DNA from: a virus
DNA: 55,171 bases
IMG/VR virus record: IMGVR_UViG_3300012971_000890
Strand: one strand, 5' to 3'
A program made the translations under genes and the position numbers. Within the stretch, counting starts at the first letter, position 1, and every line of letters begins with the position of its first letter. The notes below the pieces were generated by a model, which saw only the letters and a program-made list of their open reading frames with translations, searched no databases and was not told the DNA's origin. This document shows, one piece after another, positions 9,300-52,547 of this stretch.

Positions 9300-9962
9300 T
9301 CACTCTCCGTACTGTTCCCAGCCGTCGCCCCAGCGCTTTTTTAATTCCGCGAGGTAGCTGTGAGTCTTGATTTTACGCATCCACAGGCGGTGGCCGGTGC
9401 CGCCCTTGGCGACTACCCCCTCGCAGACCGGGTAGCGACCCTCCCGCACGTCGAGGACGAACTTCTCGGTGAACGGACCCTGATAGATAACGGTGGCCAC
9501 CGGAAGATGTCCGAATACCCGGACAAATTCTTGCGGCTCCACCAGTCCTTTCTTGTGCAGGTTCACGTCGAGCAGCATCACGTCCTTCGGGTCGTTGTGC
9601 GGGGCCTGGATGACCATGTGGTTGGGGTCGTGCTGCCCGCTAAACGACACCGGCCCGAAGAATTCGCAATAGGCGATGGCATCGGTTATGCGGGGGTAGC
9701 GGTCGCGGAGAGTTTTTTCAATTGCCTCCGCATATTTTGCCTGGAATATCGGGATGGCGCAGCCATATTCCGGGTCAGCAAAGTCAAAAACGCGGCGGCG
9801 GGTGCCGAATTGCCACCAACCCTTCTTTTTATTCCACTCAAAGCGGAGGTTGGACCCGTCGTATTTGAAAAACGCCACGCATGGCTCGCCCAGGGGCGGC
9901 TTCACGCTCGCGCCGTCGATGCTCCAGTATTCCTTCATGTGCAGCCACCACTCGGCCTTCAC
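9300..9962 (-). CDS. ATP-dependent RNA ligase-like nucleotidyltransferase (minimal NTase domain)
   Basis: Motif I KYDGSN, motif IV CEGVVAKG, motif V MRKIKT in ligase order. Confidence 0.5.
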   Translation of the reverse strand: MKAEWWLHMKEYWSIDGASVKPPLGEPCVAFFKYDGSNLRFEWNKKKGWWQFGTRRRVFDFADPEYGCAIPIFQAKYAEAIEKTLRDRYPRITDAIAYCEFFGPVSFSGQHDPNHMVIQAPHNDPKDVMLLDVNLHKKGLVEPQEFVRVFGHLPVATVIYQGPFTEKFVLDVREGRYPVCEGVVAKGGTGHRLWMRKIKTHSYLAELKKRWGDGWEQYGE

Positions 9963-10463
9963 TTGACCACCTTTGTCACCATCACGTCGTTATTGACGGG
10001 GCCTAGCTTCTCCGTCGTCAGCGTTGTTTCCGGCACCAGAACCCGCACCGCCTCCAACGCCTTGTCCCACGTCTCGTACTTGTCCACCGTCCATTCCTTG
10101 GGGCTGGTTCGACGCCACACTACGAAGCACCCTTTCGTAGTAGTCGTCGTAGCGGCGGCAGGCTTCTCGACCTTCTTCCGTGATCGTCCAGCCATTCTCG
10201 TGTTTCTCCACCCACCCGTAGCGCTCCAGGTGGCTCATATAATAGCGCTTCAGCTTGGGGTAGCCGCAGTCAAGGGTGTCATAACCTTCGGGATTTAAGA
10301 AGGTTTCCAGTTGGGGCACCCTGAACCGCCAATATATTCGCTCCTGGTCGCTGTATTTGTTCCCTGGCAGGTGCGGCCACTTGCCGATAATTAGCTTCCG
10401 CCCCTCCGCGAGCCAGTGAAGGGTCTGGTGCTGGTTCCAGGTGGGAATGCGTGGTTTGGCCAT
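9959..10463 (-). pseudogene. hypothetical gene with an apparent frame change near 10130 (N-terminal frame 9990..10463, C-terminal frame 9959..10195)
   Basis: Two overlapping ORFs; each has a protein-like half and a low-complexity half that complement one another. Confidence 0.35.
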
Positions 10464-10470
10464 TGGTCGT

Positions 10471-10507
10471 TTCCAAAAGCTGGCCAGGTGCTAGGCACCT
10501 GGCCAGC
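10471..10507 (-). terminator. terminator-like hairpin GCUGGCCAGGUGC-loop-GCACCUGGCCAGC followed by UUUU (copy 1 of a repeated element)
   Basis: 13-bp perfect stem, directly upstream of the 10463 start codon. Confidence 0.5.
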
Positions 10508-10523
10508 CTGCTGGGCTGCCCCT

Positions 10524-10691
10524 TACTTCCTTCCCGGTCGTCCGGTCTTGCGCTGGTACTCCTCCGCGCTTAGCCACCGCCCTTCCGCCTTCTTCTGGCG
10601 GATGGCGCTTTCCTTGTAGGTCTGGGACGCCCGCTTGTTGAAGCTCGACACGTTCTCGCCCTTCTGGCGGAACAGTTTCCCGAAGAAACCC
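10524..10691 (-). CDS. small basic protein (56 aa, MGFFGKLFRQKGENVSSFNKRASQTYKESAIRQKKAEGRWLSAEEYQRKTGRPGRK)
   Basis: Not in the ORF track (below 60 aa); strong RBS AAAGGAGG 6 nt before ATG; followed by a terminator hairpin. Confidence 0.35.
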
Positions 10692-10747
10692 ATCTCAGCC
10701 TCCTTTCGGGCGATGGAAACAGGAACAGAACCACGCCACTTCTATAC

Positions 10748-11230
10748 TCATTGCCGCGCTCGCAGATAATTTCCGATCACTTCCATCGCCCGGTTGGAGG
10801 TGCCGAAGTACAGGTCGTGGCCATCCTCCAGCGACTCGATCCAACGCTCCTTGTTTTTGCACAGCTTCTCGTAAAAACCGATGCTGAGCCAGGCGACGTA
10901 CTCCGGCGGGGTGAAGTCCAATAGTTGGACCCCGGTGGTCCAGTTCCAATAAGTGACGGCGCGGCCCATAATGTCTTCGAGGCCGTCGTAGTCATGGTCT
11001 TCGGGGTCCACGCCTTCTGGGCAGGCCGTCTTGCGGCGCATCCAGTTGTCCCACTCGTGGCGGGTGTTGATGTCTCCGGTGTGCTGGACCGGGCTGAGCG
11101 GGTAGCCATCCATATCCACGGGGTAGGCTTCCACAAGCTCCCAATAACGGTGGGTGCGGCGGCGGTCCTCGTCGGGCGGGGCCTTGTACTGCCAGTAACA
11201 GATCACGCCATCCGGGATGCGCTCGCTCAT
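10748..11230 (-). CDS. hypothetical protein
   Basis: 160-aa ORF. Confidence 0.45.
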   Translation of the reverse strand: MSERIPDGVICYWQYKAPPDEDRRRTHRYWELVEAYPVDMDGYPLSPVQHTGDINTRHEWDNWMRRKTACPEGVDPEDHDYDGLEDIMGRAVTYWNWTTGVQLLDFTPPEYVAWLSIGFYEKLCKNKERWIESLEDGHDLYFGTSNRAMEVIGNYLRARQ

Positions 11231-11789: not shown

Positions 11790-11830
11790 GTTCTCCTGCG
11801 GGCAACTGCCCGCGCCTTTTATCAACGTCA

Positions 11831-11992: not shown

Positions 11993-12014
11993 CGCTTAGA
12001 CCTCCATAATAGAA

Positions 12015-12069: not shown

Positions 12070-12510
12070 TTAGTTCAACAACGGGTCAACCTTCTTTCGG
12101 TACTTCGGGCGGTTGACGATGCCGCCGACCACGCTCTGGCTGGCCGGAATGCAGGTCGGGACGATCTTCTTCCCTTCCTTCAACAGCACCACAAACAGGA
12201 CATCATCGTGGACCAGAAATGCGAAGCGTTCGTAGCCGTAGCGGTTATAAATCCGCTCCATGAAGACCGAGTTGTTGGTATAGGACCGTTCCTCGTGGGC
12301 TTTGAACAGGCGGGCGGCGAGGATGCAGTCCAGACGGTGACGGCCAACTTTGGCCTCTTCATGTAGATCGAACGCCAGGTCCACACAAGTTGGGCAGCTT
12401 TGTTTCCGGCAGAGTCGCAAATGGTCGTAGTGTTTCTTGTTTTCAAACCGTTCGACGTACCGTTCGCGCAGGTGGTTGGTCAGGATGAACTCAGGCTGTT
12501 TGCCCTCCAT
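12070..12510 (-). CDS. hypothetical protein
   Basis: 146-aa ORF followed by a terminator-like hairpin. Confidence 0.45.
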   Translation of the reverse strand: MEGKQPEFILTNHLRERYVERFENKKHYDHLRLCRKQSCPTCVDLAFDLHEEAKVGRHRLDCILAARLFKAHEERSYTNNSVFMERIYNRYGYERFAFLVHDDVLFVVLLKEGKKIVPTCIPASQSVVGGIVNRPKYRKKVDPLLN

Positions 12511-12538
12511 TTCAATGCCCTTCCTCCGTTAAGGGACC

Positions 12539-12575
12539 AGAAAAAAGCCCGCCCAGGCGCGGGGCCTGGGCGGGC
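12539..12575 (-). terminator. rho-independent terminator (minus strand)
   Basis: Stem GCCCGCCCAGGC/GCCUGGGCGGGC followed by UUUUUU. Confidence 0.65.
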
Positions 12576-12585
12576 GACACGACGC

Positions 12586-13512
12586 TCAGACATCACTGTT
12601 GCCGATGATGTCGCCGGCAATCCCCTTCAGCCGCTCGACCTTCTCGGCGGGCGTGTCATTCAGACCCAGCTTCGCCTTGCCGACGAAGTGGACCGGCGAG
12701 AACACGCGGAAGATGGCCTTGACGTGATCCAGGGCCTTGGCGTAGACCGGGACGCGACCAATGACGCCCTTCTTGACCGTGACCTGCGGGGTCGTCACCA
12801 GCACCAGCTTGCGCTCCTCCGGCGTCAACTCGTTCTGGACGAACCCCATGATCTTCTTGGCCACGGCCTTTTCCTCGTCGGTGGCCTCCTTGAAGTCCTT
12901 GCCTTCCTGGTGGCCGAACAGCAACTCGTTGAAGGCCCGCAGGCTCTTCACCGGGCGCATCTCGACCTCGTTGGCCAGGAACGCCTCGGCCTGCTCCTTG
13001 GGGACGCCCATCTCGGTCAGCAGGCGCACGGTCGCCGCCTGAATGGTTTCGCCCTCGGCGGGTTCGGGCATGTGGATGTTATTCTTGGTGAAGCGGTCCT
13101 GCACCTGGAACAACGCCTCCATGTCGCGCTTGCCGGGCTGGCCGTCCTTGTCGAGCTTGAGGGCGGGGTTAGTCGGCTGGGACTTGTACTTCCAAAGCGA
13201 CTCCTGCCAGAGATCGAACACGGCGCGGTCAACCTCGGCCTCGCTGTTCTCGGCACGCTTCAGGACGATCTCAGCCAGCACCTTGGAGCCGACGAAGCGC
13301 TTGAACGCCTCGACCACGGCGGGCGGCAGTGGAACTTCGGGCCGCTCGGCCTTCTTCCCTTTCTCCTTGACGGTGGCCGAACCGTCGTCGCCCAGGGCGT
13401 CGAACAGATCGTCACCGGCGGGAGCGCCACGGACGGCGGCGGGGATGGAGTGGGCGGGCTGGGAGCCGGTGGCGGGCTGGGAACCGGCGGGGGTGGAACG
13501 GGAACGAGCCAT
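12586..13512 (-). CDS. hypothetical protein, 308 aa
   Basis: Downstream of a TTTACA promoter copy (RBS GAGGAGGA) and followed by a terminator. Confidence 0.5.
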   Translation of the reverse strand: MARSRSTPAGSQPATGSQPAHSIPAAVRGAPAGDDLFDALGDDGSATVKEKGKKAERPEVPLPPAVVEAFKRFVGSKVLAEIVLKRAENSEAEVDRAVFDLWQESLWKYKSQPTNPALKLDKDGQPGKRDMEALFQVQDRFTKNNIHMPEPAEGETIQAATVRLLTEMGVPKEQAEAFLANEVEMRPVKSLRAFNELLFGHQEGKDFKEATDEEKAVAKKIMGFVQNELTPEERKLVLVTTPQVTVKKGVIGRVPVYAKALDHVKAIFRVFSPVHFVGKAKLGLNDTPAEKVERLKGIAGDIIGNSDV

Positions 13513-13600
13513 TGGTCAAATCCTCCTCGAAGCCGGCGACTGTAGGCCCCCAGCACTCGCGGCTGGTACAGGGCTTAGGGCACCGGAATCGAACAACTGC

Positions 13601-13629
13601 ATTTTACTGTGGCAATCGCGGGTTGTAAA
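13601..13629 (-). promoter_or_regulatory. phage promoter, CTTTACAAC-N17-TAAAAT
   Basis: Upstream of the 12586..13512 gene. Confidence 0.65.
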
Positions 13630-13664
13630 GCCGCGATTCCTTCTGACCATACCGCCCCTGACTT

Positions 13665-14009
13665 TCACTGGTGTTCACGATTTTCCTTCGACGCCTGGGA
13701 ATTTTCATCCTCATCCGGCTCCCCCAGGCGCTCGATGGCGCGGTCCTGCTGGAGCATGATGATCTTGGCCTTGAGCAGCGTGATCTTCTCACGCCGTATC
13801 TTCTTTTCCTTCTTGAGTTTGCTCTCCTGCTTGAGCATGTCCTGGCGAAACTCGGCGTAGGCGCGGTGGTGTTCCTCGCAGCGCGGTTCGGGGAGAATCT
13901 TGAGCAACTTCTCGATACCGGGGAGGAATTCGGCGTCCTTGCGCTCCATCTCATCGAGGGCGTCGAGGATGGTGTCCAGGTCGGCGTCGGTAAACTCAGG
14001 CTTGGCCAT
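13665..14009 (-). CDS. hypothetical coiled-coil protein
   Basis: 114-aa charged, helical-looking ORF. Confidence 0.45.
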   Translation of the reverse strand: MAKPEFTDADLDTILDALDEMERKDAEFLPGIEKLLKILPEPRCEEHHRAYAEFRQDMLKQESKLKKEKKIRREKITLLKAKIIMLQQDRAIERLGEPDEDENSQASKENREHQ

Positions 14010-14018: not shown

Positions 14019-15047
14019 CTACTTGATGTTGAGGGAGTTGCAGAAACGGGTTGCCACGTCCAATACTACCTCCCGATCCTGCAAACCGTCTACCAGATTT
14101 CGGGGGAATATCGCCGGCCCGTGCAGGGCACCCAGCAGCGCCGCCAGCATGGAGCCGTTGGTGTCGGTATCCCCACCAGCCGACACGCAGTCAAACAGGG
14201 CGTCGATGGAGAGGGGGTTCTTCACGAAGAACATATAAGTGAAGGGCAGCGAGTTGAAAATATAGCAGTTGCCGCCCCCGAAGGCTTCGCTGATCTTGGC
14301 CGCGTCCTCATAGTCCTGGTGGTTGTAGAGCAGTTTGAGGGCGGCGTGCAGGTCGTCGTCGCCTTCGTCTTTACTTTTGGGGAATCGCTTGTCCTTGCCC
14401 ATCAAAGCGGCACCCACCACGCAATTTATAAAGGAATGGGTGCGGAAGTCCTGTGGGTCGCTGGTAAGGCATTTGAAAACGGCGAACGCCTGGCACAAGC
14501 CGCTTTGCACGGCCATGCGGGCGTCATGGGTCATACGGGAAAAGTAGTCGATGGTTTGGAGGCTTTCGGCCCAGGCCGGCTCCTTGCATTCGGGGTTGGT
14601 AACGGCCATTTGCGCCCCGATGGGGGCGATCTTCATGGGTATGCCGTTGCCAGTGCCGCGCTTCGGCTCAGTCGTCTTCCCCGACTTGTTCCACGGCACC
14701 CCGGTGGCAAGGCGGGCAACCGCTTCTCTGGTTGTTTTTCCCCAGCCGCGCACGCTCTTCTGATATTCAACAATGTGCCACGCGGCGATGGCGTTCATGT
14801 CCACGGTGCCGTAGGGCGACTCGATAATGCCTTCGGCGGTGGCCTTGGTCAGTTGCCAGTCGTCGGTGGTGGTCCCCCGTGAGTCGTGGTCGAAGTATTT
14901 GTGGCTGGCGCAGTCCTCATAGGAGGTAATGCGACCGTAGCGCTTCTGAATATTTTCCAGGCTCGCGCTCTCGGCGGGCTTACCCAGGGCGTCCCCAATG
15001 GCGATGCCCAGGAACATGCCGTTGATCCGGTCGCGGGTGATGGTCAT
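14019..15047 (-). CDS. ADP-ribosylglycohydrolase (DraG/ARH3 family)
   Basis: N-terminal GMFLGIAIGDALG, then GWGKTT, GNG and SAGGDTDTN in the family order; start taken at MTITRDRI. Confidence 0.75.
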   Translation of the reverse strand: MTITRDRINGMFLGIAIGDALGKPAESASLENIQKRYGRITSYEDCASHKYFDHDSRGTTTDDWQLTKATAEGIIESPYGTVDMNAIAAWHIVEYQKSVRGWGKTTREAVARLATGVPWNKSGKTTEPKRGTGNGIPMKIAPIGAQMAVTNPECKEPAWAESLQTIDYFSRMTHDARMAVQSGLCQAFAVFKCLTSDPQDFRTHSFINCVVGAALMGKDKRFPKSKDEGDDDLHAALKLLYNHQDYEDAAKISEAFGGGNCYIFNSLPFTYMFFVKNPLSIDALFDCVSAGGDTDTNGSMLAALLGALHGPAIFPRNLVDGLQDREVVLDVATRFCNSLNIK

Positions 15048-15465: not shown

Positions 15466-16032
15466 TTATATTTTGCCCAACTTCTTATACATGAGCAGTA
15501 CCGGCCAGGTCTTGGAGGAAATCTTGTTACGACTCACGCAGAGGGCGCAGACCTCGTTGAAGTCCATCAAGTGGACCTCGATCTCCTCGGTGGCCTCGTG
15601 GTGGTCGTGGGACACGGTGCCCTCGCACTCGCAGTATACCATGACCACCGACTCGTCAGAAAGGCCCGCCGATGAATAGAGCGGCGGGCTGATGTCGGTA
15701 ATGCCGGTCAGCGTCAGCCCGGTTTCCTCGTGTAACTCGCGCTTGGCGTCGGATACCGCGTCGGCTTCGGCAAGGCCGGCGGGAAAGGCATACTCGGTGT
15801 CGGCCAGGGGGATGCGGTATTCGCGGATCAGAACCAGCCTGCGGTTGCCGGCGGGGTCAACATGGACGGGAATCACGATCACAGCGTCAGGCTTGGGCTG
15901 GCCCTGGCTCACCGGGTTCTTCTTGCGGGAGGCGAAAATCCAATCACCTTCCTGGCCCCGGTTCTTCCAGTGAACCGAGAACAGGTTAAGCCAACGAAAG
16001 TCGGTGAGTTTCTTAGGCGGTGTTACCTGCAC
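15466..16032 (-). CDS. Nudix hydrolase (ADP-ribose pyrophosphatase-like)
   Basis: Nudix box GLAEADAVSDAKRELHEETGL (Gx5Ex7REUxEExGU). Confidence 0.75.
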   Translation of the reverse strand: MQVTPPKKLTDFRWLNLFSVHWKNRGQEGDWIFASRKKNPVSQGQPKPDAVIVIPVHVDPAGNRRLVLIREYRIPLADTEYAFPAGLAEADAVSDAKRELHEETGLTLTGITDISPPLYSSAGLSDESVVMVYCECEGTVSHDHHEATEEIEVHLMDFNEVCALCVSRNKISSKTWPVLLMYKKLGKI

Positions 16033-16294: not shown

Positions 16295-17383
16295 TTAGCC
16301 GTCGTCGTCCGACAAATCAGCGAACAGCCGGTTGGGGTACTTCAGCTTGTATCCCTCCAGCAGACGAGTTTTGATGCCCTCCTCGACACTGCGCTTGTCA
16401 AACGCCGTCATGAGCGACCCAAAAATCTGCGGGTACTCATTCTTGGCGAACCAGGCATAATCCTTGCGCAGTTTATCTGGCGGCGGGTCACCCACCCCCG
16501 CCACTAGCATTATAGACGCTGCGGTTTCGCGGACACGCTTGGTTTCGTGCAAAAGGTCAAGCTGGGCTTCGGTGTAAATCTCGCGCAGCTTTTCCTTGTG
16601 GCGGTCGGGGGCCTTGGCGATTAAGTCATCCATTAGGTCATCGAAAACGACCTCGTAGAGACGATAGGCCGGGCGCATCAAAGCGTCCACCGCACGGTGG
16701 CGCTCCAAATACCAGTTGCACTTCGCCTTCACCCAGAGGCCATTCTCAAGAACCACAACGTAGCCCTCAAACTCCTCCTTGTCAAGATGGCCAAACAGAT
16801 CGGCAAACGCGAAGTCGTACTGCTGCGCGGCGTCAGGATAGCGGGGGTAATAACTGTACTCGCCCGTGGCCCGGCACCGGGAATGCAGGTACACCAGGCG
16901 GGGGCGGGGATATTCCACCACGATCTGATTGTGAGGGGCGACAAATTCAAAAATCGGCGTGCAGCCCCTTCGCACATCCGCCACAATGTCGTCCACCATC
17001 CCCAGGCTGCGGGCCAACCGCATCGCCTGCTGCGCCTGCGGCGTCTCGCAAGACATTCGCGTGGACGCCCGCAGATCGCCCTTCCATTCAAAGAAGTGGA
17101 CCATCGAGCCGTCGAGCTTTTCGTAGACCCTGCCGTTCAGATGGCAGAGCTTGTGGTACTGCGTGTCTTCCGTCTGACCCACGTTGAAGAACTTGTGGAG
17201 AGGCAGGGAAACGATTTCCCCGGTGGCCTCGGCAAAAGTGATGCCACGGAATTCGCGGCGGATGCCGTCGAACGACCCTGGGAACTGGAGCAGGTAGTTG
17301 ATGCAAACCAAGCCATCGTACCGTTTTACGAGGAATTCCTCACGGCCTTCCAGGGCAACCAGGGCTTCGGGCAGCTTGAGCAT
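16295..17383 (-). CDS. RNA ligase, T4 Rnl1-like family
   Basis: 362 aa (T4 Rnl1 is 374 aa); motif I EKLDGS, motif IV EGYVVV, motif V LWVKAK; a TTTACA promoter copy lies immediately upstream. Confidence 0.65.
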   Translation of the reverse strand: MLKLPEALVALEGREEFLVKRYDGLVCINYLLQFPGSFDGIRREFRGITFAEATGEIVSLPLHKFFNVGQTEDTQYHKLCHLNGRVYEKLDGSMVHFFEWKGDLRASTRMSCETPQAQQAMRLARSLGMVDDIVADVRRGCTPIFEFVAPHNQIVVEYPRPRLVYLHSRCRATGEYSYYPRYPDAAQQYDFAFADLFGHLDKEEFEGYVVVLENGLWVKAKCNWYLERHRAVDALMRPAYRLYEVVFDDLMDDLIAKAPDRHKEKLREIYTEAQLDLLHETKRVRETAASIMLVAGVGDPPPDKLRKDYAWFAKNEYPQIFGSLMTAFDKRSVEEGIKTRLLEGYKLKYPNRLFADLSDDDG

Positions 17384-17522: not shown

Positions 17523-18185
17523 TCACAGCCTGTTAGCCTGTTCTTCTAAAGCGGCTCTCACTCGCGTGGCGTCGGCCTTTCCTCCTAGCTCCTTCAAGAT
17601 CGGGCCGATAAGCGAGTTGAGAGCCTGCTTTTTTCCTTTCTTGTAATCCTCGATCACCTTGGGTTTTTCCGCCAGGTGCCGGGCCACCGTCGCCTCCAGC
17701 ACGTCCGCCTGCATCTCGTTGAGGATGTCCAACTGAAGGATCGCGGTCAAGGCGTCCACCCCGGTCCAGCACACCCCGAAGACTTCTTTGACCTGGGTGG
17801 CCGACAACACGCCCTTGTGGCGTAGGAACAGGAGTGCCGGAATGTCCTCGCGCAGCCAGGGAAAATAATCCACCATCTGCTCAAACGTCGTCTTGGTTTC
17901 CTCCAACTTGGCCAGCATGTCGTTGGTCAGGAAATTAAAAACCAGCTTGCACCAAATGGGCCACTCCGGTCTGGCCTGGCAGTTATAATGGGGCATTTTG
18001 CACAGCCAGAATATTGCCTTGCCGAGCTTATCGTTGCTTTTCTCCCAATGCTCCTCCTCGGCGGTTAGCCAGAAGTCCACGCCGTCACCCTGGGGGCAGC
18101 CGGCGGCTTCCCACTTGTAATATGCGGCTGTACGGACTTCATGAAGCATCTGGCAGTCTCCGTATGTGCAGCACTCGGAGGCCAA
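17523..18185 (-). CDS. protein with DUF2934-like N-terminus and GatB/YqeY-like C-terminal domain
   Basis: C-terminus IEDYKKGKKQALNSLIGPILKELGGKADATRVRAALEE resembles the GatB/YqeY domain. Confidence 0.45.
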   Translation of the reverse strand: MASECCTYGDCQMLHEVRTAAYYKWEAAGCPQGDGVDFWLTAEEEHWEKSNDKLGKAIFWLCKMPHYNCQARPEWPIWCKLVFNFLTNDMLAKLEETKTTFEQMVDYFPWLREDIPALLFLRHKGVLSATQVKEVFGVCWTGVDALTAILQLDILNEMQADVLEATVARHLAEKPKVIEDYKKGKKQALNSLIGPILKELGGKADATRVRAALEEQANRL

Positions 18186-35330: not shown

Positions 35331-35941
35331 ATTACTGCCGTGGAGCCGTCAAACGTAACAGCAAACAGGTTGAGAATCAGATTTTCCAACCCCACCGCCC
35401 GGCGCTCCACGATGCCGGACTCGACGGAGTACCTATACAGCCCCCAGAAAAGCTCCCACAGCCCGGACGGGCCACAAACCCAGGAAGCACTCATTGGGTC
35501 GCCGTACTTCTTGATGACCTTCTCCTCGACCAAGGCGCTTACCTTGACGCGGTTCTCGATGCTGACCACCGGGAACACCAGGAAGAAGGGTTGCAACGTG
35601 TGGGATTTGCAAACGAGCTTCCGTTCACCAAGCTTGAAAAGGTTCCTGGTATCGCTCGTAAGCGCGAAATCCGGCGGGCACAGGAGCCAAACCCCCGGAG
35701 GGATGCCGTTTCCTATAACACTGTCGTAGCGGTCGATAGCACGGGAGTTGTAGGTGCTGCGTCCAGGGACGCAACTCAGCCCCAACTCCGCAATTGTTTC
35801 CTTGCCCTCTGGAGGGATTCCAAAGTCAAGGGCCACTCCTGGCAGGGCGAGGTTCTTCAACGATCTGGCCCACTTGACCCCGCTCGTTCCCCACGTTTTC
35901 TTGTCGAAATCGGTAATAACGACGTGGTTTATTTCATCCAT
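35327..35941 (-). CDS. hypothetical protein (start MDEINHVV...), possible nucleotide-sugar transferase-like
   Basis: Internal ATG overlapping the upstream stop; the track's N-terminal extension is an alternate frame. Confidence 0.4.
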   Translation of the reverse strand: MDEINHVVITDFDKKTWGTSGVKWARSLKNLALPGVALDFGIPPEGKETIAELGLSCVPGRSTYNSRAIDRYDSVIGNGIPPGVWLLCPPDFALTSDTRNLFKLGERKLVCKSHTLQPFFLVFPVVSIENRVKVSALVEEKVIKKYGDPMSASWVCGPSGLWELFWGLYRYSVESGIVERRAVGLENLILNLFAVTFDGSTAVI

Positions 35942-36596
35942 CATTCTCCTTCTGTTGGCCGTTGAGTTCAAACACCGTTGGGGCGTGGACGAGGCGATAT
36001 TTCCCGTCCACCACCGTGACGTTGGCCACGATGGTGCCGTCCATTTCCCACTGACCGCGCCCTTCATGGATGTGGCCAAAAACCATCAGCTTGGGTTTTA
36101 TTTCCTTGAGCCTGGCGAGCAGGCCGGGCGATCCCACCTTCTCACTGTCCCGCCCCCGTGGGGCCTCGTCGCCATAGCCGCGAGGCGGGCTGTGGGCGAC
36201 GAGGATATTGATGTCGTTGGGTATCAGCGCCCACTTCTTGACCAGATCGGGTTCGTAGAGATTGAACGCCCAATCAAAGAAATAAAGCTGCCAGGGCGTG
36301 CCCCAAATTTTGAAGCCTTCAAATTCCGTGCCACTGTCCTGAAGGTAAGTCCAGGGAAGGTCCGGCACCCGATGCGGCGCATTTTGAAATATCAGATCGT
36401 GGTTGCCCGCGACCCCAATTATCTTGCGGGCGGGAACCAACTTCAGCCAATAACGGAAATCCGTGTTGAGCCAATGCTCCTGGTACTCCACCCGATGGTT
36501 GATGGTGGGACAAATATCCCCCGCGATCAACAGGAGATCGCAAGGCGGGATGTCGGGCAAATACCCATGCAAATCACTGACGGCGACGACCTTCAC
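35934..36596 (-). CDS. calcineurin-like metallophosphoesterase
   Basis: DLHG, GDIC, GNHD and GHIHEG motifs in order. Confidence 0.8.
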   Translation of the reverse strand: MKVVAVSDLHGYLPDIPPCDLLLIAGDICPTINHRVEYQEHWLNTDFRYWLKLVPARKIIGVAGNHDLIFQNAPHRVPDLPWTYLQDSGTEFEGFKIWGTPWQLYFFDWAFNLYEPDLVKKWALIPNDINILVAHSPPRGYGDEAPRGRDSEKVGSPGLLARLKEIKPKLMVFGHIHEGRGQWEMDGTIVANVTVVDGKYRLVHAPTVFELNGQQKENDG

Positions 36597-39440: not shown

Positions 39441-39479
39441 GCTGTCCTCGTTGGGTGTAAAGGATCGCGTTTCCAACCT

Positions 39480-39508
39480 AGTATACTTACCGAGGAGCCG
39501 ACTGTAAA
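39480..39508 (-). promoter_or_regulatory. phage promoter, CTTTACAGT-N17-TATACT
   Basis: Upstream of clpX. Confidence 0.6.
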
Positions 39509-39512
39509 GTGA

Positions 39513-41211: not shown

Positions 41212-41717
41212 AGATTTGTTCTAAGTGCGGGGCTACCCAAGAAATCGGTAACTTTGCCGTTCGGTCCAAGACTACCGGGCGTCGTCATTCTTGGTGCAAT
41301 GCCTGCCTTAAACAATATAAGGCCGACTACTATGCCAAGCACCAGGATAAATTCCGAGAATACAAAAAGGTGTGGTATCCGGCCAACCAAGACCAGCAGC
41401 GTGCGAAATGCCGCGAGCGGTACGACAAGTGCGACAAGGACCAGCACGCTCAGGTTGTATGGAAAAATAAAATCCTCCGAGAATTTGGTCTTACCGTAGA
41501 GGAATACAACCTTCGACTGACAGAACAAAAAGGGGTGTGCGCCATCTGTGGCAAAGCAGATAGTCAACGGCTCGCTGTTGACCACTGCCATAAAACAGGT
41601 ATGATCCGTGGACTCCTTTGCCGGCGATGCAACGTGGCCATTGGTATCTTCGAGGACGATCCAGAACTGTTGGAAAAAGCCCTTGCGTATCTCAAGTCGG
41701 CTTGTCTTCGGGCGTAA
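41208..41717 (+). CDS. recombination endonuclease VII (T4 Endo VII family)
   Basis: GVCAICGK ... LAVDHCHKTGMIRGLLCRRCNVAIG; ATGA overlap with the VOC gene. Confidence 0.7.
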   Translation: MKICSKCGATQEIGNFAVRSKTTGRRHSWCNACLKQYKADYYAKHQDKFREYKKVWYPANQDQQRAKCRERYDKCDKDQHAQVVWKNKILREFGLTVEEYNLRLTEQKGVCAICGKADSQRLAVDHCHKTGMIRGLLCRRCNVAIGIFEDDPELLEKALAYLKSACLRA

Positions 41718-44207: not shown

Positions 44208-44396
44208 ATGCTCGTGCTATCCAGAAAGAAGGACGAAACCATCATCCTGAAAGGCCCCGACATGCACGAAATCCGAATCACGGTGGTGCGGATCGACAAT
44301 CGCAATAAGGTCCGCCTGGGTATCGAAGCCAATAAGGATGTCACGGTCCTTCGTTCGGAACTTACCAACGGCACCGGCCACGAGGGCGAAGCCTAA
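44208..44396 (+). CDS. csrA: carbon storage regulator CsrA homolog
   Basis: MLVLSRKKDETIIL...VRLGIEANKDVTVLRSEL matches the CsrA fold sequence; RBS AAAGGAAAC. Confidence 0.75.
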   Translation: MLVLSRKKDETIILKGPDMHEIRITVVRIDNRNKVRLGIEANKDVTVLRSELTNGTGHEGEA

Positions 44397-44913: not shown

Positions 44914-45903
44914 TTAGGAGAGCAGGTCGCTGATCGAGTCCTCCTGGTGGATGCGCCGGATGGCCTGCGCAAACAGATTCGTGGTGTCAATAATCTTCAG
45001 GTTCTTCTGAAGGGCGGGCTGGACGCGAAAGGGTCGGATCGAGTCGGTGATGACCGTGCGTTCGATGCCCGCCAGGTTCTCGTTGGCCCTGCCGACGAAC
45101 AGGCCGTGGGCGGCACAACAGCCCCAAACCTGTCCGCCGTCACGCTCCACCGCTTGCCGGGCCTCCAGCATGGTCTTGGCACTGGCAATCATATCGTCAT
45201 ATATTACCACAAGCTTGCCACGAACATCGCCGCCTATCTTGTGCCCCTTGATGGTCCGTCCCGCGTGTTCCTTATCCAGCACCGCCACTTCGATGTCCAC
45301 CCCTAGAATCTGGCTGAGTTTGTTGCGGAAGTAGCGCGAGCGTGGCCCGCCCCCCGCGTCCGGGGCCAGCACACAGAGCCGCTTGGGGTCGTGGCAGTTC
45401 TCGGCCACATAGCGGGCAATAAGGTTCTTCGCCTCCAGATGGTCGGTGGGGACATCAAACGTACACTGGAAGGCCGCGAGGTTGTGTACATCCATCGTAA
45501 GGATGCGGTCCACCCCCACGCTCTGAAACAGGTACTTGATGTACTTTTGGGTAATAGGGGCACGGCTTTCCGTCTTCCGGTCTTGCCGTCCATAGCAGAG
45601 GTAGGGGACGACCGCAGTGACTCGCCGGGCACTGGCGTCCTTGAGACTGCCGATGAAAAACAGCAGCTTTAGCAGTTTATCGGAAACGGACTCGTGGGTG
45701 CAAGAGTAAAGGGACTGGATTACAAACACGTCCCACCCCCGCACGTTGACGTTGGACCGGAGGTAATACTCCTGGTCATCGAAGCAGGTTTCCTCGTGCC
45801 GGCACAGCGAACCGTCCGTCTCGCACTGGCCCGCCAGGTGGCCGGCGACCTTGGCGGCGAAGTCCTTGCTGGCGTCCAGACCGAAAAGGCGAATCCCGTT
45901 CAT
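44914..45903 (-). CDS. ribose-phosphate pyrophosphokinase homolog (PRPP synthetase / possible ADP-ribose pyrophosphokinase)
   Basis: RVTAVVPYLCYGRQDRK and VVIYDDMIASAKT in Prs positions. Confidence 0.75.
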   Translation of the reverse strand: MNGIRLFGLDASKDFAAKVAGHLAGQCETDGSLCRHEETCFDDQEYYLRSNVNVRGWDVFVIQSLYSCTHESVSDKLLKLLFFIGSLKDASARRVTAVVPYLCYGRQDRKTESRAPITQKYIKYLFQSVGVDRILTMDVHNLAAFQCTFDVPTDHLEAKNLIARYVAENCHDPKRLCVLAPDAGGGPRSRYFRNKLSQILGVDIEVAVLDKEHAGRTIKGHKIGGDVRGKLVVIYDDMIASAKTMLEARQAVERDGGQVWGCCAAHGLFVGRANENLAGIERTVITDSIRPFRVQPALQKNLKIIDTTNLFAQAIRRIHQEDSISDLLS

Positions 45904-46783
45904 CGTTGAACCTGCTCCTTTGCTGCCTCCAGTGTGTTCCGCAGCAGCATGGTCACGGTCATCGGGCCGACCCCGCCCGGCACCGGGCTGATCGCCTCCA
46001 CTATTTTAGACACCGCCGCGAAATCCACGTCCCCTACCAGCTTCTTCCCTCCTAGACGGTTTACCCCCACGTCCACGACCACCTGACCCGCCCGCACCAT
46101 ATCGGCGGTGAGGAATCCCGGAATCCCCACCGCCACCACAATGATGTCGGCGGCGCGGGTTATCTCCTTCAGCAATGCCGGCGGCGTCCGGTTGTGGCAG
46201 ACGGTCACCGTCGCGTTGGCGTACTCGTCGTTGTCCTGTAGCAACATGCTCGACAGGGGCTTGCCCACGACATCACTACGGTTGATAACAACCACCTTCT
46301 TCCCCGCAATCCCGATGCCACTGCGCCGCAGCATCTCCTGAATGCCGTGCGGGGTGCAGGGCTTCAGCCGGGGCCGACCCTGGACCAGCAGGCCGACGTT
46401 TAACGGATTGAAAACGTCCACGTCTTTGTCGGGATTGATGAGGTCGAATATCGTATATTGATTCACCGGGCTGGGGAGCGGCAACTGAACAAGTATCCCG
46501 TGGCACCAGGGTTCCTCATTCAAATAACAGAGAATGCCCTCCAGCGTCTTCTGACCCTCCGAGAACCCGATGTACGGCTGGTACAGTTCGCTTCGGATGC
46601 CCACCCGTGCGCAGGCGTCCCGTTTGCGTTGGACATACACCGCGCTGGCCGGGTCGCTGCCCGCCAACAATACCACCAGGCAGGGGGTAACGCCTGTGTC
46701 CGCCTGAAAGTCCTGTACCTCGGCGGCTATTTCTTTCTGAAGTTCTTGCGCTATTTTCGACCCATCAATAATGTGCGCCACCC
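45900..46783 (-). CDS. folD: bifunctional methylene-THF dehydrogenase / methenyl-THF cyclohydrolase FolD
   Basis: Collinear FolD motifs; GTG start after AGGAGGGA. Confidence 0.85.
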
Positions 46784-48496: not shown

Positions 48497-48545
48497 AAGA
48501 AAAGGCCCCGGCGGTTCGCTCACCGCCGGGGCCTTCCTTCTTTTT
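48497..48545. terminator. bidirectional rho-independent terminator
   Basis: 11-bp GC stem GGCCCCGGCGG/CCGCCGGGGCC flanked by T-runs on both strands; serves the plus-strand secreted-protein gene and the minus-strand ParB-like gene. Confidence 0.65.
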
Positions 48546-49789
48546 CACTTCTCCTCGACGGCCTGGAGCTTCTTGCCCCACTTGCGGAAAATCTTCATCG
48601 GCTCGGTTTCGCCGTCGTGGATGCCCTTGGCCACCGCCATCCCGAACTTCAGCACTTCCACCGGGGCGAGGAACTGGCCTTCCGGGTCGTTGCCGTCGTT
48701 CTTGATGGCCGTCTCCAGCGTCTCCATGTAGTGCTTCTTGATCTTGGGGCCGCGAAGCGACTGCGTGGACTGGCCCCCGGCATCCCGCAGGCCGGCGCGG
48801 GCGTGCTTGGCCTTGACAACGGGCTTGACTTCGCCCTTCTGCTGGGTCTTCTCCTCCACCCGCTTCTGGGCGGCATCGTGTTCTTGGCCCGCCTCCTTCT
48901 TGCCCTGGTCGTCATCGGAGAATTCGGCCTCGGCCTGCTTCGCCTTGGCGACCTCCACATCCTCCTTGGCCTTGATGATGGACTTTTCGAGCTTCTGAAC
49001 CTTCTTCTTGGCGTCCTCACCCGCGTACTCGGTGGCCTTTTCCAGCCCCTCGTGGCGGATGCCCAGGTCTTCGACCTCCGCGAAGGCCAACGCCGCCGCC
49101 TTGTTGATGTCCCCCTTGAAGAAGGCGGTCAGGGTGTCCTGATCGTCGGACAGCTTCTCGATCAGACGGTCCATGTCCCGCAACCACTCCGGGCGGTTGC
49201 CGGTGACTTCGAGGATTTCGTCGTCGCTCCAGCCCTTGGAGCGCAGTTCGCGCACCAAGTTGATGTCAGCCTCGTCACCGAAGTCCACGCGGCAGGTGCC
49301 CGACTTGTACGCCAGCTTGAGGGCGTCCTTGTCGGTCGGGGCGTCGTAGACCTGGCACAAGATCGACCCGTACAGTTCCTTGGCCGGGACGTACTTGCCG
49401 GTAGCAGGGTCTTTGCACTTCTCGTTCTTGCGCACCAGGAAGTCGATGTTGCGCAGGCGGCGCTCGCCGTCCACCAGTTGGACCGTGCGCATTTCGTCCT
49501 GGCTGATCCACCGGCAGATGAGCGGATAGTGCAACCCCTCGTCGCGGATGGACTCACGCAGGCGGGTCATGCTGGGTTTGTCGAAGCCGCGCCCCGCCTC
49601 CCCCTCCTCGGTCGTGAGGTAGCGGAGGTTGCTCCACTTGTACTCACCCCCTTCCGGGGCGTCCGGGTCGGGCTTGTCGGCCACCGTGATGGCCGCAAAC
49701 TTGACCTTGAACAACGTGCCCTCGATCCCTACGATTCCATCAGCCAACGGCTCGCCGTTGTCCGGGGCGCTGCTTTCCTTGTCCGCCAT
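48545..49789 (-). CDS. ParB/Srx-domain protein with long charged coiled-coil C-terminus
   Basis: GLHYPLICRW...VQLVDGERRLRNIDFL ParB N-terminal-domain motif. Confidence 0.6.
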   Translation of the reverse strand: MADKESSAPDNGEPLADGIVGIEGTLFKVKFAAITVADKPDPDAPEGGEYKWSNLRYLTTEEGEAGRGFDKPSMTRLRESIRDEGLHYPLICRWISQDEMRTVQLVDGERRLRNIDFLVRKNEKCKDPATGKYVPAKELYGSILCQVYDAPTDKDALKLAYKSGTCRVDFGDEADINLVRELRSKGWSDDEILEVTGNRPEWLRDMDRLIEKLSDDQDTLTAFFKGDINKAAALAFAEVEDLGIRHEGLEKATEYAGEDAKKKVQKLEKSIIKAKEDVEVAKAKQAEAEFSDDDQGKKEAGQEHDAAQKRVEEKTQQKGEVKPVVKAKHARAGLRDAGGQSTQSLRGPKIKKHYMETLETAIKNDGNDPEGQFLAPVEVLKFGMAVAKGIHDGETEPMKIFRKWGKKLQAVEEK

Positions 49790-49825
49790 AAAATTCGCTC
49801 CTTTTCTCTTGGTGGGGTGGAACCC

Positions 49826-49854: not shown

Positions 49855-49889
49855 GGATTTGTCAAGTTCGGTCGTAAGTCCCGTCAGAA

Positions 49890-50540
49890 CTAGAAGTTGT
49901 AGTTCTTGTGGGCCTTGCGGCAGCGAATCTGCCAGTCGGTTTCGTACTCCACCTTCCCGAAACTGTCCAGTACCGAGTCCTTACGACGAAGGACCAGGCC
50001 CTCGATCAAATCGACGCTCTCCGCTTCCTTGAAGCGGTCTACAAAATGTTCGGTGAAAGTTTCGGCCAGCCAGAGGTTGGGGCTGATCTTGAGCGCAAGG
50101 CCCGCCATCTGGTCGGTCGCGGGATCGCCGGTGCCCGTGGGGTTGCCGCAAATGTCGAACAGGATTTCCAGGCGCTTCATCTGGTCGGGCGAGCAGAAGA
50201 AATAGCGGCCCGCCTCCAGAATGTCGAAAAACACCAGACAGTTGGGGCCGTCCTTGGTCTTGTTCATCACGCCGCCGTCGATCCAGTAGGTCTTGTTGGG
50301 GTCCAGCTTGAGGTTGGCCTTGATCTCCTCGGCCAAAGCGCTGGTAAGCGAGAAGCGGACGTGCTTGCCCCCGTGGCGGTTCCACACGCTCAACTCCCGG
50401 CCCAGGTCCACGCGGAGCAAGGTGCGGCTGTCGTTGAACTTGCGCTGGGCGATCCACAGCCCCGTCTCCTCGTAGTACGACAGGTCGGACGGGCTGATCT
50501 TGCCGCGTGGCCGAGGCGGGTAGATGGGCTTCTTTATCAT
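49890..50540 (-). CDS. hypothetical protein with degenerate covalent-nucleotidyltransferase (ligase-like) motifs
   Basis: KFNDSR (motif I-like, lacks Gly), FFDIL, EGLVLRRKDS, WQIRCRK. Confidence 0.4.
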   Translation of the reverse strand: MIKKPIYPPRPRGKISPSDLSYYEETGLWIAQRKFNDSRTLLRVDLGRELSVWNRHGGKHVRFSLTSALAEEIKANLKLDPNKTYWIDGGVMNKTKDGPNCLVFFDILEAGRYFFCSPDQMKRLEILFDICGNPTGTGDPATDQMAGLALKISPNLWLAETFTEHFVDRFKEAESVDLIEGLVLRRKDSVLDSFGKVEYETDWQIRCRKAHKNYNF

Positions 50541-50561
50541 TGCGTCGTTCCTCCTGCAATG

Positions 50562-50591
50562 ATATTACCGCCCGGAGCGGGCAGTTGTAAA
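50562..50591 (-). promoter_or_regulatory. phage promoter, CTTTACAAC-N18-TAATAT
   Basis: Upstream of the 49890..50540 gene. Confidence 0.6.
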
Positions 50592-50606
50592 GCGCGGATT
50601 TCAAAA

Positions 50607-50822
50607 TCACCGCTCCTCGCGGTGGACCACGATCTCGTTCTGAAGCTGGATCGGGCAGTTCTTATTTCGCAGAACCGCCATCGCCCGCTCGGTGGCGATC
50701 TGCTTCAGGTAGTAGCTCCGCACCGTGCCACGCAACACGATGGCGGTGGGCGTCTCGATCACGACGATGCCGAGCCGGCCAACATGACAATCCTGGGCGA
50801 TGGCGTCCTTGATGCTACCCAG
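50607..50822 (-). CDS. small BON-like domain protein (GTG start overlapping the SprT stop)
   Basis: GIVVIETPTAIVLRGTVRSYYLKQIATERA resembles BON. Confidence 0.3.
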   Translation of the reverse strand: MGSIKDAIAQDCHVGRLGIVVIETPTAIVLRGTVRSYYLKQIATERAMAVLRNKNCPIQLQNEIVVHREER

Positions 50823-51489
50823 CACTGGTCTTCTCCGTGACACAGACGAATAGAGAACCACACTGTTCACATCGGATGCGAAGCGGATTGGCTCCGTCCG
50901 GGCGTCGGCCACTGCGGATCGAATTGTGCGGCGGCGGGCACTTGCAGACGTATTTCAAAAAGCACGGCTTGGGGGGACGGGCACGACCGGCCTTGTCCGC
51001 GATATTATTCTTGGCCTCCCGAAATATCTGCTTGTCGATATTGACCTCGTTAAAGGTCTTAACCCGCCTCTGGATGGCCGGCTTCTCCGGCACCCGCACC
51101 AGTTCCCCGTCCACCCCGCCCTTGGGGATATTCGTGCCGGTGATACCCCAGCCCTGGGTCTTGTGCTTCTTGACCACCAGGCCCACTTCCAGGGCCTTGA
51201 CCAAGAACTTCTTGTTATGGTACTGGTTGGCGGTGCAATCGACCACCCCTTCCTGGTGGTTGCCAATATGGATCATCTCGTGGAGCAGGACCAGGAGAAC
51301 GTCGTGGTAGTCGATGTTGATGAACTCCACCCCGATCACCAAGTTTTCCGACTGGTAACGGATGGAGAGCTTCTTCTTGGTGTCGATGACCACGGGCGGC
51401 ATTTTCAAGGTGCCGCCGAAAAGTTTAATGTTGAGGGTGGAGAAGGCCCGCTCCAACTCCCCGACGATAGGCGGCTTTGCCTTGTGCAT
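50815..51489 (-). CDS. SprT-like zinc metalloprotease with C-terminal zinc ribbon
   Basis: LLHEMIH (HExxH) in SprT context; CKCPPPH ... CEQCG. Confidence 0.6.
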   Translation of the reverse strand: MHKAKPPIVGELERAFSTLNIKLFGGTLKMPPVVIDTKKKLSIRYQSENLVIGVEFINIDYHDVLLVLLHEMIHIGNHQEGVVDCTANQYHNKKFLVKALEVGLVVKKHKTQGWGITGTNIPKGGVDGELVRVPEKPAIQRRVKTFNEVNIDKQIFREAKNNIADKAGRARPPKPCFLKYVCKCPPPHNSIRSGRRPDGANPLRIRCEQCGSLFVCVTEKTSAG

Positions 51490-51491
51490 GG

Positions 51492-51740
51492 CTAATCTTC
51501 CGTGTCCATGTGTGTTTCGGGGAAAGGAGGGTTATAGGTGGGAAGCGCCGCCAGGCTGCCAATCCGGTAGTTGTGACGCGAGCGCACCACGGTCCCGATC
51601 TCGGCCTCCGCACCAGGGTCCGTGGGGTAGATGACCTTGCGACAGGAGCCGCACACCATGTTTAATTTGGCGTCGAAATAAAAACCCCTGTCAACCGGGA
51701 CGGGTTTGAGACAGTGGGGGCAAAGACGGGCCTTGTTCAT
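51492..51740 (-). CDS. zinc-ribbon small protein
   Basis: CPHC ... CGSC. Confidence 0.4.
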   Translation of the reverse strand: MNKARLCPHCLKPVPVDRGFYFDAKLNMVCGSCRKVIYPTDPGAEAEIGTVVRSRHNYRIGSLAALPTYNPPFPETHMDTED

Positions 51741-51836
51741 ACGATGATAATAAGGGGGAGGCCAAATAAAAGCAAGGTGAAAAGGAAAAAAACAGCCCGG
51801 TGGGAGCCGGGCTGTGGACCGCGCTGGCGGCGCAAA

Positions 51837-52547
51837 TCAAATGGCCTCGTTCATCTTATATTCGCGGAACAAGTCGTCACGGAGATTGACGTGGCTCAGG
51901 TCAACGAACCGGCTGGCCTCCTTCATCAGAATGGAGGAGCAGCCGACGCTGCTGAAAAAAGCGACCTCAACGCTGAGGCCCGTTTCGCTCCGAATGCGCC
52001 GGACGGTACGGGCGTAATCCTCGTCGCCAGCCACCAGGACGAAGGTGTTGTACCGGCCTGCGCGGGACAGAATGGCCATGTCGTAGACGATTTCGCAATC
52101 CAGCCCCTTCTCCACCGGCACCTGTACGGGCGCACCGTTTTCGTTGATGGTCCGCTCGCGCAACGGCAATTCTACCATGTGGTAGCCCAGGTTGGAACCC
52201 AAGAAGTCGTAGAACTTGTTGCGCTTGGCCTGGCGCAGCCGGTCCTCTGTAACAAGGTTGCCCAGGTCGGGAGAACTGTAGTAAAATCGCACGGTAGCTG
52301 TCCGACCGTCAGCCAGCACGTCCCGCAGCTTGATGTAGTCGAGGCGGCGGTTGCCCAGGTTCATGCTTTTCAGCGCGTGGAAAAGGTTGGAGTTGTCGAT
52401 GAACAGGCACACCTTCTCCTGGGAGCGGATCAGGCGGTTCATCTCACTCAGATACTCCACCATGTCCGCCGTCTGCGTGGCAGGGGGCACCGGAAACTCG
52501 ATGGTCCGGTCGTTCCTAACAGGTTCGCCGTTCTTGACTGCGTGCAT
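51837..52547 (-). CDS. NYN/LabA-like (PIN-fold) putative RNase
   Basis: VCLFIDNSNLFHALKS ... FVLVAGDEDYARTVRRIR pattern of PF01936. Confidence 0.6.
   Translation of the reverse strand: MHAVKNGEPVRNDRTIEFPVPPATQTADMVEYLSEMNRLIRSQEKVCLFIDNSNLFHALKSMNLGNRRLDYIKLRDVLADGRTATVRFYYSSPDLGNLVTEDRLRQAKRNKFYDFLGSNLGYHMVELPLRERTINENGAPVQVPVEKGLDCEIVYDMAILSRAGRYNTFVLVAGDEDYARTVRRIRSETGLSVEVAFFSSVGCSSILMKEASRFVDLSHVNLRDDLFREYKMNEAI

Follow-up and report, generated by a model that had tools for sequence, protein, structure and literature searches.

Jumbo phages are known to combine RNA ligases of the RtcB, Rnl1, and Rnl2 families (Iyer, Anantharaman, Krishnan, Burroughs and Aravind 2021; PMC7824862). XacN1, for instance, encodes three Rnl2 paralogues, while BcepSaruman and BcepSauron each combine RtcB, Rnl1, and Rnl2 (PMC7824862). 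These ligases co-occur with polynucleotide kinase (PNK) and with HAD, calcineurin-like, or HD phosphatases, and they were inferred to have specialized, non-redundant parts in repairing RNAs that host RNase effectors have cut (PMC7824862). Here, we analyzed a 55-kb stretch of viral DNA (IMG/VR record IMGVR_UViG_3300012971_000890, 55,171 nucleotides; hereafter the window), in which three putative RNA ligases, a PNK-like kinase, and a fourth protein with a nucleotidyltransferase (NTase) domain, of DNA-ligase type, are encoded together with a calcineurin-type metallophosphoesterase and a NYN-domain protein. We describe this set as a well-documented multi-ligase RNA-repair complement in an uncultured huge-phage lineage, with a conserved gene order.

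The window has a G+C content of ~59%, and ~92% of it lies under gene calls from identical public contigs. It is a portion of a 151,449-bp ENA metagenome contig (ERZ27264556, k141_6290215), and a search for near-identical DNA among deposited phages gave no match. Its proteins and gene order match those of IMG/VR viral contigs of 188, 340, and 532 kb and of LR756511, a 595-kb assembly labeled 'uncultured phage' that represents a complete relative. This sharing of proteins and gene order indicates that the window is a piece of the genome of an uncultured huge-phage lineage. Of its 89 genes, all but five are on the minus strand. The seven open reading frames that an initial annotation had singled out are all present, on the minus strand, and none of them is a chance motif match. 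The three frames proposed there to encode RNA ligases belong to such families, as indicated by PF09511, by PF09414, and by phrog_548 together with the predicted fold, respectively, and their motif I lysines (K89, K43, and K33 when numbered along the open reading frames) are present.

The ligase matching PF09511 (RNA_lig_T4_1) did so with an E value of 2e-16 and 60.9 bits, compared with a gathering cutoff of 28.3. It also matched phrog_562 (2.4e-55, profile positions 51-371 of 377) and TIGR02308 (1.7e-27, positions 53-365 of 373), a coverage that includes the C-terminal helical domain specific to Rnl1. In tblastn searches, the alignments with RnlA of Cr30 and ValKK3 spanned 93-94% of the protein. 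Comparison with the structure of T4 Rnl1 (2C5U, 2.6e-19) indicated that the equivalents of R54, K75, F77, K99 (motif I), E159, E227, K240, K242, and Y246 are all kept; these are the catalytic residues defined by mutagenesis in the Shuman laboratory. The score against TIGR02308, which describes T4 RnlA, was 96.6 bits and did not reach the equivalog cutoff of 242 bits. Judged by these profile scores, the protein is a genuine but distant member of the Rnl1 family and no equivalog. Orthologues were found in three relatives of the window. A stand-alone protein with the C-terminal domain of GatB/YqeY (NCBIfam GatB C-terminal region, 2e-16) is encoded directly upstream, and this adjacency is not kept in relatives.

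The second ligase matched PF09414 at 1.3e-30 (107.2 bits, gathering cutoff 27) and both phrog_34045 and phrog_24030 at ~1e-67. In an alignment of 30 homologues, K42-x-D44-G45-E46, E91, E166-G167, and K187 were invariant. The family is very large (2120 cluster representatives at E < 1e-3, and at least 514 matches in IMG/VR), and homologues annotated 'RNA ligase' are found in many jumbo phages. None of the solved structures is close to it: the best was 3QWU at 1e-3, and a PDB search with the single sequence returned noise only. The NTase domain fills essentially the whole protein of 223 aa, which has neither the C-terminal domain of Rnl2 nor the N-terminal OB domain of Rnl5. Some other members of the ligase family carry N-terminal extensions, unlike the NTase-only proteins of the window. 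Scans of IMG/VR with the PF09414 ligase or the Rnl1 protein as single queries retrieved no relatives, the query patterns being too specific.

Directly upstream of the PF09414 ligase lie two genes, encoding an HNH-motif protein (3.3e-4) and an HD-domain protein (HD_4, 4.5e-5), both just below their gathering cutoffs. The two genes overlap at their start and stop codons. Homologues of both are near the ligase in two close relatives, and the HD homologue is also found in a third. HNH-Rnl2 fusions and HD-type healing phosphatases have been reported in jumbo phages (PMC7824862), which the present arrangement recalls, and the HD and HNH proteins are thus possible partners of the PF09414 ligase.

The third ligase required a fold search to be placed. 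It gave no Pfam match of its own at E ≤ 0.1, PF09414 included, and matched phrog_548 ('RNA ligase') at 2.3e-5; many proteins homologous to it do match PF09414. From the family alignment, the real start is M9, which gives a protein of ~212 aa. Among 31 homologues, K33, E100, E181-G182, K197, and K199 were invariant, corresponding to motifs I, III, IV, and V. In the PDB, a single-sequence search gave noise only and a HMMER profile found no match. The AlphaFold2 (AF2) model had a mean predicted local distance difference test score (pLDDT) of 91.7, and the top 33 PDB matches retrieved with it by Foldseek were all RNA ligases, including TbREL1, T4 Rnl2, T4 Rnl1, and NgrRnl, with template-modeling (TM) scores of 0.5-0.59, as well as archaeal Rnl3. 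The identity to any solved ligase was 14-17%. No accessory domain was found, the NTase spanning essentially the entire protein. Among deposited phages, the family was found only in Lak megaphages, XacN1, and huge phages of the LR7565xx and LR7452xx series. On the strength of the profile match, the homologues, the invariant motifs, and the model, we assign the protein as a divergent RNA ligase NTase whose family is largely confined to huge phages. XacN1 has homologues of both minimal ligases, i.e. of this protein and of the PF09414 ligase. A small ORF annotated 'glutamyl-tRNA amidotransferase' lies ~1.7 kb downstream of the XacN1 homologue of the divergent ligase. Comparison with hhalign of the profile of the divergent ligase with that of the PF09414 ligase or of the DNA-ligase-type NTase gave no significant score; therefore, the ligases of the window are not recent paralogues.

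The assignment of the kinase as PNK-like was confirmed. From the start used in the gene calls of public contigs, it is a protein of 169 aa, which matched AAA_33 at 4.5e-15 and phrog_505 ('polynucleotide kinase') at 2.8e-9; its top NCBIfam matches were PNK-3'Pase (6.7e-10) and bacterial Pnkp (2.2e-8). When a profile of six orthologues was searched against the PDB, the best-scoring match and all named matches were polynucleotide kinases: the kinase domain of Clostridium thermocellum Pnkp (3.3e-6, full length), mammalian PNKP (1.2e-5), and, weakly, Pnkp1 and T4 PNK. Asp33 is invariant and aligns with Asp38 of C. thermocellum Pnkp, the general base of that enzyme. In one relative (IMGVR_UViG_3300032053_005312, 12494-13687), ~230 aa with Cys-rich HNH-like motifs precede the kinase frame, in frame with it, which suggests that a homing endonuclease was inserted in, or fused to, this kinase gene.

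The set is conserved in relatives. The order DNA-ligase-type NTase, kinase, PF09414 ligase, Rnl1, and divergent ligase is repeated in UViG 3300020172_001601 and, without the kinase, in UViG 3300049215_000771. These two IMG/VR relatives, contigs of 340 and 532 kb, encode all four NTases in the order of the window, with the kinase in place in the 340-kb one. This order is kept at a protein identity of only 40-58%. LR756511 has homologues of all four NTases and of the stand-alone kinase, and encodes in addition three proteins with no homologue in the window: a second PF09414 ligase, of Rnl5 architecture (N-terminal OB + PF09414), a T4-type Pnkp (AAA_33 + PNK3P/HAD), and a canonical DNA ligase (PF01068 + OB), whose gene adjoins that of a PARP. 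As the NTase set and its order are kept in relatives and LR756511 shares the set, a rich ligase complement is a stable trait of the lineage. It follows that the presence of three ligases in 55 kb, which had been considered unusual, is not so for jumbo or huge phages: several ligases are normal in this lineage and have been published for jumbo phages (PMC7824862). A canonical healing enzyme may lie outside the window.

These findings led us to favor, as a fairly probable function, a heal-and-seal pathway in which the three RNA ligases and the kinase would mend RNAs, tRNAs above all, that host anticodon nucleases or toxin RNases have cut. The analysis establishes the families of the proteins, their intact catalytic motifs, their folds, and the conserved four-NTase set with its order, while activities, substrates, and any cooperation of the genes are what we infer in this scheme. 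The kinase would phosphorylate the 5'-OH end and a phosphoesterase would open or remove the 2',3'-cyclic phosphate or the 3'-phosphate. Each ligase would self-adenylylate on its motif I lysine and pass the AMP to the 5'-phosphate, and attack by the 3'-OH would then seal the break. The ligases might divide the types of breaks between them, Rnl1 acting on anticodon loops and the minimal ligases on nicks or other substrates. The part of the initial annotation that proposed such a counter-defense thus agrees with the standard published inference for jumbo phages (PMC7824862); as to the part that had the genes act together, nothing shows that they cooperate.

Several observations indeed weigh against this proposal. 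The repair genes are scattered over 41 kb, with unrelated genes in between that encode a sigma factor, a histidine kinase, ClpX, PurE, FolD, and PRPP synthase, the neighborhoods of the PF09414 ligase and of the divergent ligase are not kept beyond close relatives, and no neighborhood or other evidence ties the dispersed genes into one system. In relatives, the kinase gene has no RNA ligase gene beside it and is found 2 kb downstream of the gene for the DNA-ligase-like NTase, and the alignment shows Ile or Val at the position of Arg41 of C. thermocellum Pnkp, the Arg that follows the general base. None of the precomputed Pfam matches for genes called in the window is to RtcB, Tpt1/KptA, 2H, or a HAD phosphatase, and Pfam scans of 20 neighboring hypothetical proteins revealed no 2H, Macro, KptA, RlaP, HAD, or RtcB domain. 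ARAGORN found no tRNA gene in the window. The phosphoesterase also resembles proteins of another kind, as described below. The annotated neighborhoods of the PF09414 ligases of CcrBL9, XacN1, and Phosso were uninformative.

We also considered the possibility that there is no system at all: the seven genes would be unconnected accessory genes that happen to share one large region, early or auxiliary, of a very gene-rich phage. Each ligase would then have its own role, the phosphoesterase would degrade cyclic-nucleotide immune signals or act in superinfection exclusion, the NYN protein would degrade RNA of the host or of a competitor, and the kinase would process DNA ends alongside the DNA-ligase-like NTase. 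The dispersion of the genes and the unconserved ligase neighborhoods are as expected from this explanation, as is the synteny of the kinase with the DNA-ligase-type NTase and a ParB homologue rather than with an RNA ligase. Yet, the conservation of the four-NTase set and of its order at such a low identity argues for selection on the whole set, and tight clusters are occasionally observed elsewhere. In a few unrelated viral contigs, a PF09414 ligase is clustered with a PNK-like gene and Rnl1 (one contig), with Rnl1 (two contigs), with a homologue of the divergent ligase (one contig), or with a phosphoesterase (one contig). Furthermore, the rnlA, rnlB, and pseT genes of T4 are dispersed as well, and Rnl1 and Pnkp cooperate nonetheless. 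Taking both sides together, we regard a complete independence of the seven genes as somewhat unlikely, with a chance that is by no means negligible.

Independence is also suggested by the phosphoesterase and the NYN protein. The phosphoesterase belongs to the metallophosphoesterase family (Metallophos, 1.5e-11), with complete metal-ligand motifs (DxH, GD, GNH, H, and GHxH), which agrees with what had been annotated; its description as an end-healing phosphatase of the Pnkp kind was not supported. Its sole significant solved relative was mammalian MPPED2 (3RL4, 1.6e-26), it matched the PADLOC anti-phage defense candidate PDC-S10 over its full length (3.2e-64), and the PDB search disclosed no specific tie to C. 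thermocellum Pnkp or to the lambda-phosphatase clade. Its phage homologues are mostly found in crAss-like and Flavobacterium phages. No homologue was found in LR756511 or beside the ligase genes of the closest relatives. The protein may be a diesterase acting on cyclic nucleotides or on 2',3'-cyclic phosphates. As a separate observation, it is a phage copy of a gene family of defense islands.

The assignment of the NYN protein to its family was borne out (PF01936, 9.3e-20, 72.1 bits for a gathering cutoff of 24.2). It contains the acidic motifs FIDNSN, GLDCE, and GDEDY, matches the PADLOC models HEC-09 (2.5e-7) and NYN (1.1e-6), and may be an RNase. No homologue was found in 102 related loci or in LR756511. 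The genes of both the phosphoesterase and the NYN protein are variable accessory genes, which probably act independently.

The fourth NTase had been proposed to be a degenerate RNA ligase, possibly inactive. It is a degenerate NTase, as proposed; its fold is that of the adenylation domain of a DNA ligase. The protein of 216 aa has no Pfam match of its own and a single-sequence PDB search gave noise only, while other members of its family (~210 aa) often match PF01068. The AF2 model had a pLDDT of 94.5, and Foldseek ranked highest the adenylation domains of DNA ligases from archaea and from human (TM scores of up to 0.70). The model stops right after motif V, and an OB-fold domain with motif VI is absent. 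According to this model, the protein is of DNA-ligase type and not of RNA-ligase type.

Its motifs are non-canonical. K34 (motif I), the motif Ia-like NRHG, E180-G181 (motif IV), R206, and R208 are invariant in the family. Motif I reads KFNDSR in the window and KFNGSR in the family consensus, compared with the canonical KxDGxR; the Asp is replaced by Asn or Arg in the family, and the Gly additionally by Asp in the clade of the window. Motif III reads DGGVM, compared with DGELM in the family consensus, the Glu being replaced by Gly in the same clade. Motif V is RCRK in both the window and the family, both lysines of the canonical KxK being replaced by Arg. The neighbors conserved around the family are a ParB homologue (17 of 22 loci), a Zn-ribbon protein (15 of 22), and, weakly, a SprT-like protein (12 of 22), and this context points to DNA. 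The ParB homologue of the window combines the GERRxRA CTPase motif with a helix-turn-helix (HTH) domain and has a C-terminal region that is long and charged. When 14 homologues were made into a profile, it matched Thermus Spo0J (1VZ0) at 1.7e-13 over both the N-domain carrying GERRxRA and the HTH domain. From motifs and neighbors, the fourth NTase is probably a DNA-acting enzyme, or one whose activity is altered, and not a participant in RNA repair.

One explanation for this protein would be that it is the replicative DNA ligase of the phage in a split form, with DNA binding provided in trans. This would account for its fold and for its place in a conserved core block adjoining DNA-associated genes, and no canonical DNA ligase is encoded inside the window. 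However, LR756511 has both a homologue of this protein and a canonical ATP-dependent DNA ligase (PF01068 + DNA_ligase_OB_2), the motif III Glu is gone from the window protein, and the two motif V lysines are replaced by Arg throughout the family. A split ligase is thus very improbable. Two related ideas were rejected: the 414-aa neighbor is an ordinary ParB/Spo0J/Noc homologue and not an OB or DNA-binding module for the NTase, and the NTase is not the only DNA ligase of the lineage, as LR756511 has the canonical enzyme too. The latter was missed by phmmer searches with T7 ligase and E. coli LigA as queries. There is also a small chance that the protein does not seal nicks and is instead a nucleotidyl transferase of new specificity, for its substrate or its nucleotide; it could, for example, AMPylate or cap a DNA end, an RNA end, or a protein.

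We also asked how the ligases relate to the enzymes of NAD+ and ADP-ribose (ADPr) metabolism encoded nearby. A WGR-PARP, an ADP-ribosylglycohydrolase, and a Nudix hydrolase whose best matches are the ADP-compound hydrolase NudE and ADP-ribose diphosphatase could form, with the Rnl1 and PF09414 ligases, a module centered on NAD+ and ADPr that senses and processes nucleic-acid breaks. In such a module, broken ends or proteins would be ADP-ribosylated as a mark for repair or a means of regulating it, and the hydrolases would serve to recycle what is produced. The Rnl1, Nudix, and glycohydrolase genes are adjacent and syntenic in three relatives, although this may be mere shared ancestry. Of 80 viral loci with a PF09414 ligase, 8, distant ones included, have a WGR-PARP homologue no more than 6 kb from the ligase, which is a weak association. 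The PARP is extremely conserved in LR756511 (1.6e-238), and enzymes of NAD+ and ADPr metabolism have been connected with phage RNA repair in the literature (PMC9503650). On the other hand, none of the domains detected in the window is Tpt1/KptA, Macro, or 2H, and the PARP, the glycohydrolase, and the Nudix hydrolase are equally well explained as a counter-defense against host NAD+/ADPr signaling. Such a module appears unlikely, and we retain the heal-and-seal repair of RNAs as the preferred function of the RNA ligases and the kinase.

Table 1. Coordinates of the main features in the window and of the additional repair genes of LR756511.1
Feature	Coordinates	Strand	Basis or remark
Divergent NTase-only RNA ligase (predicted), ~212 aa	9300..9962 (probable start 9938)	-	phrog_548, family motifs, AF2 fold
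ADP-ribosylglycohydrolase	14019-15017	-	
ADP-ribose-type Nudix hydrolase	15466-16032	-	
Rnl1-family (T4 RnlA-type) ATP-dependent RNA ligase, 362 aa, NTase + C-terminal helical domain	16295..17383	-	PF09511, phrog_562, TIGR02308, 2C5U
GatB/YqeY C-terminal-domain protein, stand-alone	17523..18149	-	PF02637 GatB_Yqey
WGR + PARP protein, 540 aa	21483-23105	-	
Stand-alone PF09414 RNA ligase, NTase domain only, 223 aa	25709..26380	-	PF09414; phrog_34045, phrog_24030
HNH-motif protein, candidate partner of the PF09414 ligase	26422-27396	-	HNH
HD-domain protein, candidate partner of the PF09414 ligase	27396-28394	-	HD_4
Calcineurin-type metallophosphoesterase, MPPED2/PDC-S10 kind; RNA-repair link unproven	35934..36596	-	Metallophos, 3RL4, PDC-S10
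Stand-alone PNK-like P-loop kinase, 169 aa	47089..47616 (called start 47598)	-	AAA_33, phrog_505, NCBIfam
ParB/Spo0J/Noc-family protein, conserved neighbor of the DNA-ligase-type NTase	48545..49789	-	1VZ0 match
Stand-alone DNA-ligase-type adenylation (NTase) domain, 216 aa, no OB domain, non-canonical motifs	49890..50540	-	PF01068 homologues; AF2 fold
LabA-type NYN-domain nuclease (predicted), variable accessory gene	51837..52547	-	NYN Pfam, PADLOC
LR756511.1: OB + PF09414 (Rnl5-architecture) ligase	64628-65884	-	
LR756511.1: AAA_33 + PNK3P/HAD Pnkp	101893-102909	-	
LR756511.1: PF01068 + OB DNA ligase	184914-186065	-	adjoins PARP

The other genes of the window are of varied kinds. Besides the NAD+/ADPr-related genes, they encode a sigma-70 factor, a PAS/HisKA/receiver hybrid kinase, a ClpX-like ATPase, an M50 peptidase, PurE, FolD, PRPP synthase, CsrA, endonuclease VII, and a glyoxalase. 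The sigma-70 family factor (29576-30547, minus strand) stands side by side with the hybrid histidine kinase, a PAS/HisKA/HATPase/receiver protein of 747 aa (31040-33283, minus strand). The ClpX-like AAA+ unfoldase (2.3e-174 to LR756511) adjoins the M50 site-2-type metallopeptidase (38148-40583, minus strand). The genes for PRPP synthase, FolD, and PurE (44914-46781 and 28391-28813, minus strand) are interspersed among the repair genes, and those for PRPP synthase and FolD are syntenic in relatives. The plus-strand genes for glyoxalase, endonuclease VII, and CsrA (40636-41717 and 44208-44396) break the otherwise all-minus region, and the AT skew changes sign at 40-42 kb of the window. The CsrA homologue is kept in 17 of 22 related loci.

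Multi-ligase RNA-repair toolkits have already been described for jumbo phages, and the window adds one more example of them, without revealing a system of a new kind. That the set is conserved in gene order speaks for non-redundant roles of the paralogous ligases. What remains new are two compact (~210 aa) NTase-only families, that of the divergent RNA ligase and that of the rewired DNA-ligase-type adenylation domain, the latter being the more unusual. Both are uncharacterized and, among deposited phages, almost exclusively found in huge phages, and both might serve as minimal ligation tools.

Comparison with known systems places these proteins as follows. The fourth NTase shares with ATP-dependent DNA ligases (PF01068; Chlorella virus, T7, archaeal, and eukaryal Lig1) the fold, the motif I Lys, NRHG, and the motif IV EG, and differs from them by the missing OB domain and the altered motifs I, III, and V. 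Both minimal RNA ligases of the window share the NTase fold and motifs I, III, IV, and V with minimal or nick-sealing ligases (the NTase of T4 Rnl2, TbREL1, NgrRnl, and DraRnl), without the C-terminal domain of Rnl2 or the N-terminal OB domain of Rnl5. The kinase, metallophosphoesterase, and ligase NTase of the C. thermocellum Pnkp-Hen1 system all have counterparts in the window, and the best solved relative of the kinase is the kinase domain of that Pnkp. In contrast to Pnkp-Hen1, the domains are unfused and non-adjacent, the phosphoesterase, which resembles MPPED2, has no detectable relation to the Pnkp phosphatase, and no Hen1 methyltransferase is encoded in the window.

Like the T4 set (Rnl1/gp63, Rnl2/gp24.1, and Pnkp/PseT), which counters PrrC, the window comprises an Rnl1 orthologue that keeps every catalytic residue as well as the C-terminal domain, further ligases from the Rnl2 superfamily (PF09414), and a PNK-type P-loop kinase, encoded by dispersed genes. 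Unlike T4, which has one two-domain Rnl2, it has two NTase-only ligases; its kinase stands alone and has no HAD phosphatase domain attached, none of the proteins of the window was recognized as a HAD phosphatase, and a DNA-ligase-like NTase is added. The sets of jumbo phages (PMC7824862) likewise comprise Rnl1, Rnl2/PF09414 ligases, PNK, occasional calcineurin-like or HD phosphatases, and an association with HNH. No RtcB or RlaP was detected in the window, in contrast to those sets. Compared with them, the present lineage, which is uncultured and has relatives of 340 to 595 kb, adds a DNA-ligase-type NTase-only family and keeps the whole set in a conserved order.

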